Assembly (NCBI GenBank): GCA_038087875.1
Contig: CM075989.1
Span: 4,278,001-4,342,000, forward strand
Direction of reading: 5' to 3'
Origin: Malacoraja senta
Lineage: Eukaryota
DNA length: 64,000 nucleotides
The notes under the pieces were generated by a model. The model worked only from the letters and a program-made list of their open reading frames with translations, had not been told where the DNA came from and made no database searches. Positions 6,505 through 64,000 of this stretch are shown piece after piece. Each line of letters opens with the position of its first letter. Position 1 is the stretch's first letter. Both the position numbers and the translations under genes were made by a program.

Positions 6505-7996
6505 TCCGAGGACATTGCGGGAACTAGGGAACAAATTGCGGGAGCCCGGGTTGAAATTTATGAGCTGTCCTTAAATACAGGAGAGCTGCCGGAAGACTAG
6601 AGGGTGGCAAATGTTGTGACTCTTTTCAAGAAGGGCTGAAGGGAAAATGCTGAGAACTATAGAGCTTAACATCTGTAGTGGTAACTTACTGGAAAGTATT
6701 ATGAGGGATAGGTTATATAGGCATTTGGATGGGCAAGGGCTGATTCGGGATAGTCAGCATGGTTTTGGACATGGGAGGTCGTGTCTCACAAATCTGATTG
6801 ATATTTTTGAAGACGTGACCAAAAAGTTGATGGGGGCAGAGCTGTAGATGTTGTGACATGGACTTCAGTAAGGCATTCGACAAGGTTCCGCATGGCAGGC
6901 TGCACTGGAAGGTTAGATCTCCTGGTATCCAAGGAGAGATAGCTGAATGAATAGCAAATTGGCTCCATGGAAGGTAGCAGAGGGTGATGGTGGAAGGTTG
7001 CTTCTCGGACTGGAGGCCTATGACTAGTGGTGTGCCTCAGGGTTCGGTGCTGGGCCCGTTACTGTTTGCCAACTATATTAATGATTTGGATGAGAACATA
7101 CAGGGCAAGATTAGCAAGTTTGCTGATGATACAAAAGTTGGTGGTTTTGCAGATAGTGAAGATGGTTGTGAACGATTGCAGCAGGATCTGGATCGATTGG
7201 CTAGGTGGGCAGGGGAATGGTTGATGGAATTTAATACAGAAAAGTGTGAGGAGTTGCGTTTTGGGACGTCGAACAAAGGCACGACCTACACAGTAAATGG
7301 TAGGCCTCTGGGTAGTGTTGTAGAGCAGAGGAATCTAGGAGTACAGGTGCATGGCTCCTTGAAGGTCGAGTCGCAGGTAGATAAGGTGGTCAAAAAGGCT
7401 TTTGGCACTTTGACCTTCATCAGTCAGAGTATTGAGTATAGAAGTTGGGAGGTCATGTTGCAGTTGTATAAGACATTGGTGAGTGCATTTAGAATATTGT
7501 GTTCAGTTCTGGGCACCATGTTATAGGAAAGATATTGTCAGGCTTGAAAGGGTTCAGAAAAGATTTATGAGGATGTTGCCAGGACTAGAGGGTGTGAGCT
7601 ATAGGGAGAGGTTGAGTAGGAGGTGGAGCGCAGGAGGATGAGGGGTGATCTTATAGAGGTGTACAGATCATGAGTGGAATAGTTCGGGTAGATGCACAGT
7701 CTCTTGCCCAGAGTAGGGGAATCGAGGACCAGAGCACATAGGTTCAAGGCGAAGGGGAAAAGGTTTTATAGGAATCCGAGGGGTAACTTTTTCACATAAA
7801 GGGTGGTGGGTGTATGGAACAAGCTGCCAGAGGAGGTAGTTGAGGCTGGGACTATCCCACCATTTAAGAACCAGTTAGACAAGTTTGGAGGGATATGGAC
7901 CAAGCGCAGACAAATAGGACTAGTGTAGCTGGTGTTGGCAAGTTGGGCCGAAGGGCCTGTTTCCACACTGTATCACTATGACTCTATGACTCTATT
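6505..7996 (+). mobile_element. CR1 (HER1-like) LINE, 5'-truncated, RT pseudogene
   Basis: ORF pieces SQHGF..SCLTNL, SGVPQGSVLGPLLF, KFADDTK; frameshifts; (atgactct)n tail. Confidence 0.93.
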
Positions 7997-17812: not shown

Positions 17813-18302
17813 TGGGGGAGGAGGGGCACAGGGGGGAGGGGCAGCAGAGGGGGAGAGAGAGGGGAGGGGGGAAGAGAGGAGGGGGAAAGAGGGAGGTAGA
17901 GGGGGAGAGGGGGGGAGAGTAGTAGAGGGGAGAGAGGAGGGGAGAGGAGGGGTAGAGAGGGGGATATAGTGGGACAGAGGAGAGGGAGGGGAGAAAGAGG
18001 GGAAGGGAGGAGAGTGGGGCAGAAAGAGGGGGAGAGAGGAGGGGGAAGGGGGAGAGAGAGGGGGAGGGGGGAGAGAGGGGTGGGGTGAGGGGGTTAGGGG
18101 GGAGAGGGGGAGGGAGGGGGGGAGAGAGAGTAGAAGGGAGAGAGGAGGGGGGAGAGAGGGAGGGAGGGGGAGAGGAGGGGGAGAGAGGGGGGAGAGAGTG
18201 GGAGAGAGAGGGGGAGAGAGGGAACAGAGGAGAGGGAGGGGAGAGAGGGGGGAGGAGAGGGGAGGGGAGAAGAGGGAGAGGGAGGAGGAGAGAGATGGGG
18301 GG
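17813..18302. repeat. Purine-rich (G/A) low-complexity tract
   Basis: Almost pure G/A with many GGG runs. Confidence 0.95.
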
Positions 18303-22934: not shown

Positions 22935-24118
22935 ATGATGTAATAGAACGTAAACCATAGAACGTGTGTGTTGTTTTCCATTAAGATGATTAAAACGCAC
23001 GTTTCAAAGTCCCTGATATCTCCTGGAGATTATTACACTATTGTTATTGAGAATTACTACTAATATCACCCATGGACCATATTCCAATGAATTACAACTG
23101 GTGACAAGAATCGTCACAACAACAGACACATCTCCAGAGAAAGAAAAGACATTTGATGAGCAATGACACTGACTTGTAACTCCATAGTGGAGAGATTAAA
23201 TCTCTTGGTAGTCAGAGTTTTCTTGGGTATGCAGTGAGTTGATGAACCTGTTCAGGAGGTGACAATAGAAATCAATAGACAGGTCCAGTCCGTCTTTGCT
23301 GATAGCAAGAGAACTCAGCCGAGATCATTGAGAAGCCTTGATGTCAACAGCAACGGCTATTTGGTGGGAAATGGGACAAATATGTTTCATCAACAGCCGA
23401 GCCATGTCCAATCAAGCATGCACGTTCTACACAGATGTTCTTTATGGCTGATTGTAATCCTCAAATCAAAGTACATACCAAAAATACTTAAGCACTGAAT
23501 ATTGCTACAAGACAGTGAGAGATGACTGCTCCATAGACTGTGTATTGCTCTGAGATCTATCACATGTTTACTAACCTGGTCGCCCTATACTCGCAGGAGA
23601 AGTTTACTTTAATTTAGTTTAGTTTAGTTTAGTTTATTGACCCAAGTACCGAGGTACAGTGAGAAACTTTTGTTGCGTAGGAGGATGAGGAGTGTAACCA
23701 GTCAGCGGAAAGACTCCACATGAGTAGGCTGGGACTCCATCCCTTGGAGCGCAGGAGGATGAGGAGTGATCTTACTGAGGTGTATAAAATCATGAGAGGA
23801 ATAGATGAGGTAGATGCACAGAGACTCTTACCCAGTAGGTGAATCGAGAACCAGAGGACATAGGTTTAAGGTGAAGGGGAAAAGATTTAATAGGAATCTG
23901 AGGGATAACCTTTTCACACAAAGGGTGGTGGGTGTATGGAACAAGCTTCCAGAGGATGTAGCGGAGGCAGGGACTAACCCAACATTTAGTAAATTGTTAG
24001 GCAGGTACATGGATAGGACAAAGTGTTAAAGAAGGAACTGCAGATGCTGGAAAATCGAAGGTACACAAAAATGCTGGAGAAACTCAGCGGGTGCAGCAGC
24101 ATCTATGGAGCGAAGGAA

Positions 24119-25390
24119 ACCCCGGCCACTGACACCCTCCTCCGCCTAGCGGAGCTGGTACTTACACTTAATAACTTTTCATTTGACTCCTCCCATTTCC
24201 TCCAAATACAAGGCGTAGCTATGGGCACACGCATGGGCCCCAGCTACGCCTGCCTCTTTGTCGGGTACGTAGAACAATCCCTGTTCAATGCGTACCAGGG
24301 CCCCATCCCCGACCTCTACCTCCGCTACATCGATGATTGTTTTGGTGCCACATCCTGCACCCACACACAACTGACTGACTTCATCCGCTTCACCACCAAC
24401 TTCCATCCGGCACTCAAATACACCTGGACCATTTCCGACACTTCCCTACCATTCCTTGACCTCACTATCTCCATCGCAGGTGATAGACTCCTTACCGACA
24501 TCCACTACAAACCTACCGACTCCCATGGCTATCTGGACTACACTTCTTCCCACCCTGCTTCCTGTAAGGACTCCATCCCCCACTCCCAATTCCTCCGTCT
24601 ACGCCGCATCTGCTCCCAGGATGAGGCGTTCCACACCAGGGCATCTGAAATGTCCTCATTCTTCAGGGAACGGGGGTTCCCCTCCTCCACCATAGATGAG
24701 GCTCGCACCAGGGTCTCTGCCATACCCCGCAACACTGCTCTCTCTCCCCATCCCCCCACTCACAACAAAGGCAGAGTCCCCCTAGTCCTCACCTTTCACC
24801 CCACCAGCCGTCACATACAACAAGTGATCCTCCGTCAGTTCCGCCACCTCCAACGTGACCCCACCACTCGCCACATCTTCCCATCTCCCCCTATGTCTGC
24901 CTTCCGCAAAGACCGCTCCCTCCGTAACTCCCTTGTCAATTCTTCCCTTCCCTCCCATACCACCCCCTCCCCTGGTACTTTCCCTTGCAACCGCAAGAGA
25001 TGCAACACTTGTCCCTTCACTTCCCCCCTCCACTCCATTCCAGGACCCAAGCAGTCGTTCCAGGTGCGACAGAGGTTCACCTGCATCTCCTCCAACCTCA
25101 TCTATTGCATTCGCTGCTCTAGATGCCAGCTGATCTACATCGGTGAGACCAAGCGGAGGCTTGGCGATCGTTTCGCCGAACACCTCCGGTCGGTCCGTAA
25201 TAACCAACCTGAACTCCCGGTGGCTCAGCACTTCAACTCCCCCTCCCATTCCGTATCTGACCTCTCTGTCCTGGGTCTCCTCCATGGCCACAGCGAGCAA
25301 CACCGTAAATTGGAGGAAATGCACCTCATATTCCGCTTGGGCAGTCTACATCCTGGTGGCCTGAACGTTGAATTCTCCCAATTCTGCTAG
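24119..25390 (+). CDS. Penelope-like RT (C-terminal part) plus GIY-YIG endonuclease, 5'-truncated but uninterrupted
   Basis: QGVAMGTRMGPSYA, YLRYIDD, LPFLD, CxxxxCxxC linker, NLIYCIRC..C..IYIGETKR, RFAEH, GLN. Confidence 0.93.
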   Translation, partial: TPATDTLLRLAELVLTLNNFSFDSSHFLQIQGVAMGTRMGPSYACLFVGYVEQSLFNAYQGPIPDLYLRYIDDCFGATSCTHTQLTDFIRFTTNFHPALKYTWTISDTSLPFLDLTISIAGDRLLTDIHYKPTDSHGYLDYTSSHPASCKDSIPHSQFLRLRRICSQDEAFHTRASEMSSFFRERGFPSSTIDEARTRVSAIPRNTALSPHPPTHNKGRVPLVLTFHPTSRHIQQVILRQFRHLQRDPTTRHIFPSPPMSAFRKDRSLRNSLVNSSLPSHTTPSPGTFPCNRKRCNTCPFTSPLHSIPGPKQSFQVRQRFTCISSNLIYCIRCSRCQLIYIGETKRRLGDRFAEHLRSVRNNQPELPVAQHFNSPSHSVSDLSVLGLLHGHSEQHRKLEEMHLIFRLGSLHPGGLNVEFSQFC

Positions 25391-26690: not shown

Positions 26691-27150
26691 CACAGGTTGG
26701 TGACCTGTTTTTCTGGGGCTCCCGCAACTACAGCTGCGTCCGCTGGACTGGAGGGCGGCAGCTTCGGCAGCTTCGACCACCCCGGGCCGCGGAGTTTGAG
26801 CCGGCCCGTCGCGGAGCACGGATTCGGGCCGCGGAGTTTGAGCCGGCCCGTCGCGGAGCACGGATTCGGCCGCGGGACTGGCTTACCGTCGCCCGGCGGG
26901 GTCACAGCATCAGAAGCCTGGATCGCCTCAGCGCAGAGGGAGAACAAAGCGGGAAGAGACAGAGACTTTAAGACTTTTTGCCTCCATCACAGTGAGGAGG
27001 TGCCTGGTGAACTCACTGTGGTGGATGTTAATTTGTGTTTATTGTGTGTTTTGTCATTTATTATTATATGTATGACTGCAGGCAACGAAATTTCGTTCAG
27101 ACCGAAAGGTCTGAATGACAAATAAAGGAATCTCTAATCTCTAATCTCTA
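26691..27150 (+). mobile_element. Young GC-rich retroelement (SINE or LINE tail) with a 45-bp internal tandem duplication
   Basis: cgggccgcggagtttgagccggcccgtcgcggagcacggatt twice; AATAAA then (aatctct)n tail; atgt on both flanks. Confidence 0.65.
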
Positions 27151-27791
27151 ATGTTTCTATCGTGGAGATATCTACAGACGGAAAATCAGCCATTGACTTT
27201 GACAGAAACATCCTTAAGTTAAGACATAATTTTGGTGAAATATTGATGGTACCAGGTTAAATGTGAAGTGTCATGTGCCATGCTTAATAGTAAGATTAAA
27301 TGAGCTTACCAGTTTGAAGTTTGATCTTTATTTTATGAGGAGTTATGTTGAGGGATTACGTGAAGAACCCGCCAGCCCGCATGCGCGTCAATCTTCAAAG
27401 CAGCGGTGTGAAATCACAGATAACAGTTGTTGAACTAAACATAGTAAGATTAGAGAAAACTAGAATACCAGCTGACCTTTATGATAGAGGGTTGGAAGTG
27501 GAGGGCACGTAATCCCTCAACGTAACTCCTCATAAAATAAAGATCAAACTTCAAACTGGTAAGTTCTCGTTTAATCTTACCATTTTACTTCGGAGTCACG
27601 TGAGTGACTACGTGAAGATTTCAAAGCTCTGTGATTTTATGCCATGGAAACGAGTCCATGCGTCACACAGTGTGTTAATGGACCAAGGAGGAGTGAAACT
27701 ACAATGCATTCAGACATGACATAGTTTTAAAGCAGGCTGATGCTTTTATTTACAAAAATAAATAATAATGACCCCTAACACTCGGGGTAAA

Positions 27792-28694
27792 TTATAAGAC
27801 AGAATTTAAAATAGAATCCGCAAACACCCCTGGCTTGGCAATGGGTTTGTCATAGAATATCTGAAAAGTTCTTTCATTAGACCATCCTGCCGCCACAAGG
27901 ATGTGGTCCGTAGGAACTTCCAACCCTTTCGCTGCCGATGTCGATGCAGCACTAGTGGAGTGAGATTTAAAAACATCAGTGTCCACACCTGCACAAGCCA
28001 ACACCTGTCTTAGCCACCTTGAGATGGTTTGCACTGACACCCCTCTGTGAGGTTTCTTATGACTGATAAATAAAGCCAATTCAGTGCCTCTGAGGTTTTT
28101 TGTGACCTTGATATATTGTAGCAAATGGGTGACTACACATAAACGAAGGTCCACGGGATATGCTACGAATTCCAATCTGAGACCTGACGCCCCTGGTCTG
28201 CTCTGCTTAATTAATTCATACACGTTAAAAGTTATTTTATTGGCAGATGTTATCATTGTGTCCAGTCGCAATTTATGTAGTGACTGGACCCGTTGTGCGG
28301 AAACTAGCACCATAAGCATAACTACTTTAAAAGTCAGCTTGACCAGTGACAGGGATGTTGCTGGAGCCCACCCCCGAAGCAGCGTCAGTACAATGCTTAC
28401 ATCCCAAATCTTGGAGTACCTAGACCTGGGAGGATTGGTGTTAAAAATACCCTTCATTAGTCTTGACACCAGTGGGTGAGACCCAACAGCGTGGTGTCCC
28501 AACCCTAGCCATAAATATGATGATAGTGCACTTCTGGCACAATTGATGGCACTGTAACTCAGTCCTTCATCAAAATAAAGACTGGACGAAAACTCTAACA
28601 CATCTGTCACACGTGCTGTGTTATACATGATGTTAGACCATGAGCAGAACTGGAGCATGTCATGCTGGAGCATTTTCTCCATTAAACGCTCCAT
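27792..28694 (-). CDS. DIRS tyrosine recombinase (HxxR arginine altered to Ser)
   Basis: SAINCARSALS, HPLVSRLMKG, WDVSIVL, SAQRVQSL, LCVV, HSTSAAS, AGWS...FQIFY. Confidence 0.9.
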   Translation of the reverse strand: MERLMEKMLQHDMLQFCSWSNIMYNTARVTDVLEFSSSLYFDEGLSYSAINCARSALSSYLWLGLGHHAVGSHPLVSRLMKGIFNTNPPRSRYSKIWDVSIVLTLLRGWAPATSLSLVKLTFKVVMLMVLVSAQRVQSLHKLRLDTMITSANKITFNVYELIKQSRPGASGLRLEFVAYPVDLRLCVVTHLLQYIKVTKNLRGTELALFISHKKPHRGVSVQTISRWLRQVLACAGVDTDVFKSHSTSAASTSAAKGLEVPTDHILVAAGWSNERTFQIFYDKPIAKPGVFADSILNSVL

Positions 28695-28967
28695 TCAAGA
28701 TAACCGCCCTAGGGCGCTATCTGCCGAGGGAGATGAGTCTTCCCAGCCTGACTCACCCGAGTCCACAGGCCTATCCGATTTGTGTTTGGATTTACCCCCT
28801 TTCTGGGAAACCACCGCTGATTCTAAAGGGACCAAGTCGGAGGTCACTGACCATATTGTCAGCGACTCAGGTGGAGAATTCGACCGCCGCTGGCTGCCCG
28901 CACTCCTGCGGTCCTCCGTAGCCTGTTTTGCCGCGGTCCGTTTGGACTTAGCCCTTAATTTTTCCAT
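28695..28967 (-). pseudogene. Gag-like N-terminal segment, same frame as the YR ORF, separated by one TGA
   Basis: Basic Ser-rich 90 aa; minus strand reads TCT TGA ATG GAG. Confidence 0.6.
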
Positions 28968-30279
28968 AGAGACTGGAAATCCAATGTTCTGTAAATGAAA
29001 TTGCAGAACAAAACGACCTCAGAATAAGTGAAACTTACCTGGAGGGCCTTTTTAAACTTACCGCTGTATGAGCAACGCGCCTACCAGCCGGTTGCTGCGC
29101 CATGCGTTAGACGATATGACGTGCATGCGGGCTGGTGGGTTCTTCACGTAGTCACTCACGTGACTCCGAAGTAAAACAGTGTTTAGAATTGCTTATGATT
29201 GCTGCCGGCTACACAGTGTAACCACCATTACTGTGGCCACCATTACTGCGCTAGGGTTGGTGGGGAAAACCAAGGGTCTATAAGCAGCCTTGTTTACTGT
29301 TCAAGCAGAATTTTCATTGAAGCTACAACATAAAGATTCTGAAGTCATTAAATGAAAAACTGATCTTTACCTTCTAGTAGACAGACACAAAATGCTGGAG
29401 TCACTCAGCGGGTCAGGCAGAATCTCTGGAGAGAAGAAATGGGTGTAGGTAAGGTTTTGGGTCAGACTGAAGAAGGTCTGAAGAAGGGTCTCGACCTGAA
29501 ACATCACCATCCTTCTATCCAGAGATGCTGCCTGTGCCGTTGAGACCTGGGACACTATGCACATTATTACTAAATTCTTTATAATCCTTAAAAAGCTTGT
29601 CATTACTTGGTCAATATACAAAGCTACAGCCTTCGTATTGACCATGTTGGTTGCATGTCCATGCTTACTCCAACCACTGAGACACGTGCGGTCAAGATCA
29701 AGCTCGGGCCTCTGGCACTGTGAGGCAGCAACTCTACCAGCTGTGCCTCTGTGCCATCCTTAACTGCTGGAGGTTGAAACCACTGGATGACTCGCCACAT
29801 TTTGCAAGTTGTGCACAGCTCCAGAATGTAACACCCCCACAGTATCTTAGCAAATACTTAAATTTAAAGTATTATCCAATTACTTTCTCTGTCCTTACTT
29901 ACATTGAGCTCCTAATTACTTCCTCTGTTTTATTTTGTCCATATTAACAGAGCAGGCTTATCCTCTAGACTTATCCAATTGCAATGTAAATTCTCAAGTT
30001 TATCGGTTAATCTTTTAAGCCTGTCTTTAATAGATCCACACCACAAAGCAGTCCCTCTCTCTTCCATCCCACTAATTGCCTGTTGCTACCTGTCTAAACA
30101 TCCCTGCAACATTAAAGAGAATTAAACACAAACTACAACTTGAAAAGACAATATGTTCTTATGCTCTCCCTGTCTCTCAAAAGAGTTTCAGTTTAGCTTA
30201 TTGTCACGTGTACCGAGGTACAGGGAAAAGCTTTTGTGGCGTGCTATCCAGTCAGCGGAAAGACAATACATTGATTATT

Positions 30280-31451: not shown

Positions 31452-32605
31452 CATGCTGGAGTAACTCAGCGGGTGAGGCAGCGTCTCTGGGGACAAGGAA
31501 TGGGCGACGTTTTGGGTTGAGACCCTTCTTCAGACTGATGTCAGGGGTGGGGACGGGACAACGACAGAATGTAGGTGGAGACAGTAAGACTTGTGGGCGA
31601 CCTGGGAAGGGGAATGGGATGGAGAGAGAGGTCTATGTTCATACCGCTGGGGTGTAAACTACCCAAGCGAAATATGAGGTGCTGTTCCTCCAATTTGCGC
31701 TGGGCTGCACTCTGACAATGGAGGAGGGAAATGGGTCAGATTGGGAATGGGAGGTAGAGTTGAAGTGCTGAGCCACCGGGAGATCAGGGAGGTTAAGACA
31801 GACTGAGCAGAGGTGTTCAGCAAAACGATCGGCGAGCCTGCGCTTGGTCTCACCGATGTGGTCTCAGGAGAAGTTGACACCTGGAACAGCGGATACAGTA
31901 GATGAGGTTGGAGGAGGTGCAAGTGAACCTCTGCCTTACCTGGAAAGATTGTTTGGATCTTGGATGGAGTCGAGGGGGGAGGTAAAGGGACAGGTGTTGC
32001 ATCTCCTGCGGTTGCAGGGGAAAGTACCTGGGGAGGGGGTGGTGTGGGTGGGAAGGGATGAGTTGTCCAGGGAGTTTTGGAGGAACAGTCTCTGTGGAAA
32101 GCAGAAAGGGGTGGAGATGGGAAAATGTGGCCAGTAGTGGGATCCCGTTGGAGGTGGCAAAAGTGTTGGAGGATTATATGTTGTATGCGACGGCTGATGG
32201 GGTGGAAGGTGAGGACAAGGAGGACTCTGTCCTTGTTATGAATGGGGGGAGGGGTAGTAAGAACGGAGATGCGGGATATCGAGGAGACCCTGGTGAGAGC
32301 CTCATCTATAATGGAAGAGGGAACCCCCGTTTCCTAAAGAATGAGGACATCACCGATGCCTTGGTATAGAACACCTCATCCTGAGCGCAGATGCGGCGTA
32401 GACAGAGAAATTGGGAGTAGGGGTAGAGTCTTTACAGGAAGCAGGGTGGGAAGAAGTGTAGTCAAGATAGCCATGGTGAGTCAGTAGGTTTGTAGAAGAT
32501 GTCGGTGAAAAGTCTGTTTCCTGTGATGGAGACGGTGAGATCTAGAAACAGTAGGGAGATGTCGGCGATGATCCAAGTGAATTTGAGTGTCGGATGGAAA
32601 TTAGT
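31452..32605 (-). mobile_element. Older degenerate Penelope-like element (RT end, GIY-YIG, pLTR)
   Basis: SSLPTHTTPSPGTFPCNRRRCNTCPFTSP matches the 24119-25390 ORF; frameshifted. Confidence 0.9.
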
Positions 32606-62562: not shown

Positions 62563-64000
62563 AATAGTAAGATTAAACGAGAACTTACCAGTTTGAAGTT
62601 TGAACATTATTTTGTGTGGAGTTACGATGAGGGATTACGTGAAGAAGGCCGTCCCCACGCGTGCGCGCCAATCTTCAAAGCAGCGGTGTGAAATCACAGA
62701 TAACAGTGTTGAACTAACATAGTAAGATTAGAGTTGACTAGAACTTACAGAAAGATGGTTATGTTACGAGGGACTGGAGCAGAGGGCACGTAATCCCTCA
62801 TCGTAACTCCTCATGAAATAATGATCAAACTTCAAACTGGTAAGTTCTCGTTTAATCTTACTATTTTACTTCGGAGTCACGTGAGTGACTACGTGAAGAT
62901 TTTGAAGCTCTGTGATTTCATGCCGTGGAAAACGAGTCCACACAAGCACAACTGCATGAGTTGACCACAGATATAGGAAAACATTCATAATGCATACAGA
63001 CATGACATAGATTTAAAACATGCTGATGCTGATAAATGAACAAATAACAATAATAAAAGTAACCCCTCTCATCCGAGGGGGGAAACTATGAAATAGAACC
63101 TAAAATAGAGTTGGCAAATACCCCTGGTCTGGCAATGGGTTAAAATAAAATGTTTGGAAACCTCGTACGTTAGACCATCCTGCATTCGGCAGGATGTGGT
63201 CCAGAGGACCGTACATAACCCTTGCTGCTGATGTAGTAGCAGCCCTGGTGGAGTGAGATTAGAAATGAGCATCTACTCCTGTATGAGCCATCACCCCGTT
63301 TTATCCACCTGGAGGTAGTCTAAACTGATACCTTCTTATGAGGTTATTAGTAACTAACTACATAGGTAGTATGAGAGCCTCTAAGGCTCTAGGTGACCTT
63401 GACGTAATGTTGTAAACGTGTGACCACACATAACTAAAGGTGCATGGGGTATGCCCCGAGAACTAGTTTGAGACCTGACACCCCTCGGCTACCCTGCATA
63501 AATAAATAGTAAACATGACATATTATATAAGTAGGTATAATGATCCTGTCCAGTCACAATTTATGTAATGACAGGACCCGTTGTGCTGAGAACAGCAGCA
63601 ATGGTATACCTTATGAGCCCCGAGCCCAAGGTAGGGATATAGCTGGAGCCCCCTGGTGAAGCAGTGTCAACACAATCTCAATATCCCACACTCCGTGTAC
63701 TTGGGTCTGGGAGAACAGGTGTAAAGATATCCTTAATAAACTAGAATCAGAGGGCGAGACCCAACAGAGCTGGGTCCCACTCGCTGCAGCATATATGATG
63801 AGAAAGCACGTTAAGAATCAGAGGGCAAGACCCGACAGAGCTGGGTCCCACTCGCTGCAGCATATATGATGAGAAAACACGTTAAGCACAGTTAATGGGA
63901 CTGTAACTTAATTTATTGTCAAGGGCCCATAGAAAATGAACACTAAGACGTCGGTGTCCGTGCCGTATGATATGTAACATAACACTTAAGCAGAACGTTT
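62563..64000 (-). mobile_element. Second DIRS-type element (3' part), diverged subfamily, degraded YR
   Basis: Terminus and ICR (62787-62899) homologous to 27286-27618; SHSTRAATT motif at about 63230-63258. Confidence 0.9.
63743..63885. repeat. 71-bp tandem duplication inside the YR pseudogene
   Basis: agaatcagagggc...cacgtta occurs twice. Confidence 0.9.

Follow-up and report, generated by a model that had tools for sequence, protein, structure and literature searches.

Is a 1,891-bp DIRS1-like element without a reverse transcriptase (RT) a member of a family that spreads in this short form, or a single copy that lost its interior? The question is raised by a locus in a 64,000-nt stretch of Malacoraja senta DNA (hereafter the window), where the element runs from 29176 to 27286 on the minus strand. 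A preliminary description of the same DNA had suggested that it may be a non-autonomous family that keeps its own recombinase while borrowing RT in trans, rather than a one-off deletion.

DIRS elements occur in vertebrates including chondrichthyans (PMC4350176, in part; here and below, these words mark sources available as partial text), can account for more than a quarter of the genome in an amphibian (PMC8498967, in part), and form degenerate families that are common in Xenopus (PMC9210276, in part). For DIRS-1, the transcript is converted into mostly linear single-stranded cDNA, completion of the cycle requires the internal complementary region (ICR), the RT can work in trans, and integration by the recombinase has been proposed to take place where a short sequence matches (PMC7192593, in part). 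DIRS derivatives that lack RT have been described from Chlamydomonas, namely TOC1 and INT1 (PMC9940879, in part). Neither a recombinase-retaining RT-less DIRS family nor a skate DIRS element was described in the literature searched, as far as its text was available and with Repbase, Dfam, subscription journals and supplements outside the search.

Element boundaries, termini and internal complementary region

The boundaries, the inverted terminal repeat (ITR) and the ICR of this 1.89-kb element were found at the coordinates proposed earlier (Table 1). The ITR core pairs at 32 of 34 bases, and complementarity over the 42-nt arm is 90%. The ICR is the complement of the right terminus joined to the left terminus, with both halves meeting at a TTTT, as had been described. 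In alignments of the element's own repeats, positions 29141-29176 match the ICR at 36/36 bases, while the comparison of the ICR with the right terminus (79 columns) contains three substitutions and one 2-nt gap; as read from these alignments, CpG transitions account for 4 of the 5 substitutions by which these repeats differ. An inverted copy within the element exists for 78 of its 20-mers, and none of 200 mononucleotide shuffles contained any.

No target-site duplication was found in a comparison of the flanks, which are unrelated to each other. The start with TTT and the end with ATT, without target duplication, agree with the definition of DIRS1-like elements in PMC3266345 (in part). Together with the members of this group (XtDIRS, TnDIRS1, AcDIRS; PMC3266345, in part), the element has ITRs, a right extension and a two-part ICR (about 36 + 79 nt) at a T-run, as well as NTT-type termini, no target duplication, gag followed by a recombinase on one strand, and a Cre-like recombinase of the HSTR type. 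It differs from them in size (1.89 kb vs. 4-6 kb), in having no RT, RNase H or methylase, in the deletion of the gag core and of the first recombinase helix, in a stop within gag, and in a Ser that replaces a catalytic Arg. Intact cis signals (ITRs and ICR) are thus combined with the absence of RT, as in a non-autonomous DIRS family.

Very high-copy short repeats flank the element at about 26950-27140 and 29379-29544 of the window, and the second of these carries 33-nt inverted arms. The leader contains GTAAGT donor-like motifs at 29061 and 29038 (minus strand), followed by a pyrimidine-rich stretch that ends in TTTACAG near 28990; judging by the GTAAGT motifs, a 5' UTR intron is possible. Leader motifs resembling GTAAGT donors were also seen in 4 of the 8 full-length relatives checked.

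Table 1. Features of the DIRS1-like element, in the order of its own 5' to 3' direction (window coordinates)
Feature	Position	Strand	Basis or remark
Left (5') terminus and left ITR	29117..29176	-	TTTT at element start
Gag N-terminal 106 codons	28650..28967	-	Basic, low-complexity stretch and short helix; conserved gag core absent
Premature TGA in gag fragment, codon 91	28695..28697	-	CpG-type change; contig comparison
Deletion seam, gag meets recombinase in frame	28647..28652	-	Homology borders
Cre-like tyrosine recombinase without first conserved core-binding helix	27792..28649	-	Homologs, fold match
ICR (internal complementary region)	27506..27618	-	Circle junction TTTT at 27583-27586
Right ITR core	27357..27390	-	Pairs with 29117-29150, 32/34
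Divergent ITR part and right extension	27286..27356	-	Complementary to ICR; element end ATT

Coding content and position of the fusion

The open reading frames 28967-28695 and 28694-27792 lie in one frame with a single TGA between them, as reported before, and read through (TGA as X) they give 391 codons without a frameshift. The reported lack of RT, RNase H and methylase was likewise borne out, as tblastn found no match to them anywhere in the window at E <= 0.05 when the pol ORF of L001, a full-length element whose pol was confirmed by Pfam RVT_1, and the RNase H/methylase part of the Leucoraja erinacea gene model P0016 were used as queries.

The first ORF had been called gag-like, and its homologs indicate that it is derived from gag. 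A phmmer search with 28967-28650 retrieved three proteins (P0137, P0138, and P0139; E 3.5e-11 to 5.1e-07), which align up to residue 105-106, going past the TGA position by 15 codons, and then, unlike the element, continue as gag. Since a later part of P0139 (residues 176-297) is similar (E 7e-21) to the ORF that precedes pol in L001, we take the first ORF to be the N-terminal part of a DIRS gag. This gag is incomplete: only its first 106 codons are left, with a stop among them, and the core common to P0139 and L001 is missing.

Homology to gag reaches 28650-28653 and homology to recombinases sets in at 28652, and these borders place the true fusion point at about 28650, with the TGA inside gag. 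At the seam, codon 106 of gag is followed by the recombinase from a point just behind the first core-binding helix of the latter, and roughly the first quarter of gag is left. The gag/recombinase fusion of the preliminary description is therefore retained as an in-frame join of two parts, but its junction is moved from the TGA to the seam; similarly, the second ORF (300 aa) is a recombinase as proposed, although its first 15 codons are gag and the N-terminus of the recombinase is cut. Contigs spanning the TGA were considered as proof of a common junction and rejected, because the seam maps downstream of the TGA.

Compared with full-length relatives from metagenomes (n = 5; 4.8-5.1 kb), about 3 kb are missing from the element. 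Where all three ORFs of a long locus could be read, gag, pol, and recombinase mostly occupy three different frames; L018 and L028 have broken recombinase frames. By chance, an in-frame join is expected for one in three deletions.

The nearest named relatives are gene models of Leucoraja erinacea. The element matches LOC129695459 (gag-like, P0139) and LOC129695449 (RNase H/methylase/recombinase-like, P0016) at 62-66% over the last ~50 gag residues and at 63% over the recombinase part, respectively. Unlike the element, LOC129695459 goes on as gag past the seam, and LOC129695449, which has weak RVT_3 and Dam matches ahead of its recombinase, keeps the RNase H/methylase region and the QY..W helix.

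State of the recombinase

Tyrosine recombinases use the catalytic set R-K-H-R-W-Y. In read-through numbering, the element keeps R226, K254, H336, W362, and Y372, whereas its HxxR motif reads HSTS, with Ser339 (27951-27953) in the place of the arginine, as had been noticed earlier. This arginine is invariant in the homologs (77/77). Across DIRS1-like elements generally, HSTR is variable (13/28; PMC3266345, in part), which weighs against the reading as a dead copy given below.

The QY..W helix motif, present in 61 of the 63 homologs that are long enough upstream to test (among the best 120 of 416 matches), is absent from the element, and in a 78-row alignment the element has E and M where Y and W occupy 36/36 and 37/38 of the aligned rows. 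Pfam Phage_integrase scored above its cut-off on five of six homologs scanned, the sixth (P0016) being cut short at its C-terminus, and gave no match on the read-through protein. A PDB sequence search returned 0 matches. The structural model of an intact homolog (P0123; pLDDT 89.4) contains a helix at residues 10-30 and has Cre as its best fold match (Foldseek E 1.2e-09; Z 21.3, rmsd 5.1, 286 aligned, from Cre residue 30). From range offsets, this helix would fall on the Cre region with K43, and by this model the helix lost from the element matches the start of the DNA-binding domain of Cre. K43, in helix B of Cre, is a major-groove specificity residue (PMC7438526, in part).

In the AlphaFold model of the read-through protein, a gag-derived helix (93-110, pLDDT 82-94) is predicted where the lost helix would sit, which is also where the input alignment placed the helix of the homologs. 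The match of this model to Cre (Z 18.7, rmsd 5.4, 271 aligned) was obtained with the same alignment, which is biased towards a helix. The gag substitute has 2 basic and 3 acidic residues, vs. 5 and 2 in the recombinase helix.

The recombinase is therefore not intact, as its first helix is lost and a Ser stands at the otherwise invariant Arg. The idea that the element keeps its own recombinase is undercut by the seam, which removes this core-binding helix in addition to the conserved gag core. The earlier suspicion that the copy is probably inactive is strengthened by the stop in gag, the catalytic Arg to Ser change and the loss of the first recombinase helix taken together.

Stop codon, HSTR site and substitutions in other copies

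Contigs of four public runs from three studies, two of which are referred to as X1 and X2, were aligned to the element. The TGA is a change private to this copy, or nearly so. In the other contigs of the four runs, the base giving CGA at 28697 accounted for 221/221, 2503.6/2543.6, 66.9/66.9, and 4.76/4.76 of the summed depth, as expected if the TGA is a CGA decayed at a CpG, and gag homologs have R or K at this position. Site 27951 behaved in the same way, with the base giving HSTR making up >99% of the depth in other contigs, so the guess that other copies carry HSTR was right as well. What had been expected to follow from the two sites, namely support for a fused RT-less family, does not: the stop lies in the gag part and HSTR in the recombinase part, both outside the seam, so full-length elements should also carry CGA and HSTR, and neither site can show such a family.

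One X1 contig has 0 differences from the flank of the element over 257 bases, and run X1 therefore probably holds the locus itself. The 40 rows listed of 815 difference rows include 25 coding rows, 11 of which were near-private (at least 90% of depth differing in both X1 and X2), while the other 14 were omitted as shared variation. All 11 change the amino acid; this count, which is biased towards constrained sites, gives no sign of selection on the copy.

The seam and the relatives of the element

None of the 32 contig pieces listed (of 230,083) bridges the seam at 28650. The match of a piece from X1 (record 4) breaks off at 28633, and the remaining 155 bases are unlike the element; in X2, one piece (record 14) ends at 28650 with 47 bases left (on a side deduced from the record coordinates), and for another (record 15) the match sets in at 28656. 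With 82-85% identity, these neighbours of the seam are relatives that belong to a different subfamily from the element. They indicate that uninterrupted parents probably exist but do not show the seam to be unique; in combination with the skate models P0016 and P0139, such pieces, which leave the element at the seam, suggest RT-bearing partners. The indirect evidence leans towards a unique seam, although the negative results from contigs and proteins are weak.

Two features of the depth profile were considered and set aside. A dip in the bin 28629-28719 (216.6 vs. 1147 and 977 in X1) was rejected as a sign of the seam because single gag sites drop to 138-155. The roughly 1000-fold higher depth on the ICR and termini was not accepted as evidence of tiny derivatives, which is unproven given that diverged families share such ends.

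At the protein level, the best 120 of 416 matches cover 51-75% of the query; none of them was a chimera of gag and recombinase or was seen to include the first ORF. In a BLASTP search with the 300-aa ORF, matches lay on the recombinase side. A word-based search with the gag part yielded 0 matches from 138 candidates, the three phmmer matches to gag were all gag-only, and the seam region compared with short proteins gave 1/6 matches, a plain recombinase fragment and no chimera. The best identity in the protein database was 68%, and as the database holds no closer copy, the absence of a chimera there says little. A cluster of ~390-aa homologs was examined as a set of ready-made fusions and dismissed, since it does not cover the first ORF. 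Methylase-type sequence lies upstream of the recombinase in both P0078 and P0016, and we therefore take the two to be ordinary recombinase ORFs that presumably overlap pol. No relative was found in viral contigs, nor was the terminal motif found in prokaryote genomes.

A second, older DIRS1-like copy is located at 62563-64000 of the window (minus strand) and is 74.5% identical to the first over 1,241 columns. The two share the end CTTACTATT, near 62563 in the second copy, and their ICRs are nearly identical. The recombinase of the second copy is frameshifted with HSTR kept, and a tandem duplication of about 70 nt is present near 63750-63890. The end of the window cuts this copy and leaves five bases upstream of the position equivalent to the seam; 4/5 of these bases differ, a slight hint that its recombinase may have a normal N-terminus.

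The ICR and right end of L001 (4114-4451), which comes from a metagenome, are 70.6% identical to the window over 360 columns and 88.5% over 61, and its recombinase is only 53% identical to that of the element at the protein level. These alignments point to strong conservation of the cis core across distant hosts.

Origin of the element

We consider the locus to be a dead DIRS1-like copy with a one-off internal deletion of about 3 kb, and give this reading a probability of roughly 0.58. The parent would have been a DIRS1-like tyrosine-recombinase retrotransposon of cartilaginous fish, which, following the DIRS model, would have been transcribed and reverse-transcribed and had its ends rebuilt on the ICR. 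The ~3 kb could have been lost in one event either during reverse transcription or after insertion, and the recombinase would accordingly have integrated either an RT product already deleted or the full-length parent, in both cases at a short T-run without target duplication. Neutral decay under methylation would have followed. The in-frame join would then be due to chance (1 in 3) and the chimera would never have worked, leaving a coding-dead copy whose RNA might, by virtue of the cis signals, still be copied by partner proteins. As neither gag, pol nor recombinase is in the state of an autonomous member, the element is classified as a deletion derivative of a known kind. Nothing was seen to support a spread of the short form as a family. 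Against a one-off deletion counts the general experience that shortened transposable elements which keep both ends are often members of amplified families.

The most serious competitor, which we still regard as unlikely, is a passively copied non-autonomous DIRS family, founded by a single deletion, with the short element then copied many times wholly in trans, by the gag, RT and recombinase of partners, and the chimeric ORF carried as a passenger. Every cis signal that such copying would need is intact, and RT-bearing relatives exist in skates (e.g., P0016 of Leucoraja erinacea). There are precedents as well, since in Dictyostelium the ICR is essential, the RNA of a truncated DIRS-1 is accepted by RT in trans, and endogenous proteins bring about the integration of transformed cDNA (PMC7192593, in part), and since the non-autonomous DIRS element TOC1 is known (PMC9940879, in part). 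In the Dictyostelium assay, however, the truncated DIRS-1 completed no scorable cycle, though its marker stayed unspliced (PMC7192593, in part). The comparison with TOC1 (Chlamydomonas) and the engineered trDIRS-1 (Dictyostelium) extends to the lack of RT and the use of partner proteins in trans (PMC9940879, PMC7192593, both in part). The contig comparison speaks against this alternative, as 0 of the 32 pieces listed cross the seam. TOC1, which has a split-direct-repeat structure, is a multi-copy mobile family, whereas no second copy with the seam of the element occurs among these pieces.

It is considerably more doubtful that the chimera itself works, in which case the gag helix would replace the core-binding helix and only RT would be borrowed. 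The locus would then be a decayed member of a multi-copy RT-less skate DIRS lineage equipped with a natural helix-swapped Cre-like enzyme. The in-frame seam with its 391 codons free of frameshifts fits this possibility, as do the stop and the Ser, which are near-private to the copy. The predicted gag helix, with 14 residues vs. 16, is of similar length to the lost one, and the model keeps the Cre fold; however, the helix in the model is partly borrowed from the alignment, and the substitute is without the invariant Q, Y, and W and has the deviating basic and acidic residue counts given above. Moreover, no chimera or seam-bridging contig was found among the rows listed, and an in-frame join has 1-in-3 odds of arising by chance.

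It is very improbable that the element is the retrocopy of a subgenomic DIRS RNA in which splicing normally connects gag with the recombinase. On the gag side the last three bases are CAG, a frequent exon ending, and the donor-like GTAAGT motifs in the element make splicing conceivable, but the residue before the F/Y-C pair varies in homologs (Q, M, K) and the second copy has ACG at this place, so there is no conserved AG acceptor. In addition, the donor-like sites in the 5' UTR (29061 and 29038) are unspliced in this copy, and the join removes a conserved DNA-binding helix.

Least credible of all is a Crypton-like DNA transposon coding for a recombinase only, which shares with the element a recombinase without RT, since a gag fragment and an ICR are present here, neither of which Cryptons are known to have, and since the closest relatives are DIRS elements with gag, pol, and recombinase, including L001 with its 70.6% identical ICR region.

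If the locus is a one-off deletion copy, its importance is minor, being one further indication that DIRS1-like elements, a group with few descriptions in the literature searched, are numerous in skates and rays. Should the seam prove to be shared, a vertebrate DIRS would need only its ends and the ICR to spread, a point that the Dictyostelium assay left undecided; selection on the chimera as well would make it a retroelement of an unusual, half-autonomous type and an example of natural domain swapping in a Cre-like recombinase.

Other features of the window

Further putative mobile element sequences lie outside the two DIRS1-like copies. A 182-codon frame at 6978-7526 (plus strand) resembles a fragment of a CR1/L2-type LINE RT. 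A run of N at about 18100-18300 marks an assembly gap and adjoins a low-complexity purine tract. A 457-codon open frame spans 24017-25390 (plus strand), with a fragment at 31659-32333 (minus strand), and the longer frame may encode a Penelope-like RT with a GIY-YIG endonuclease.
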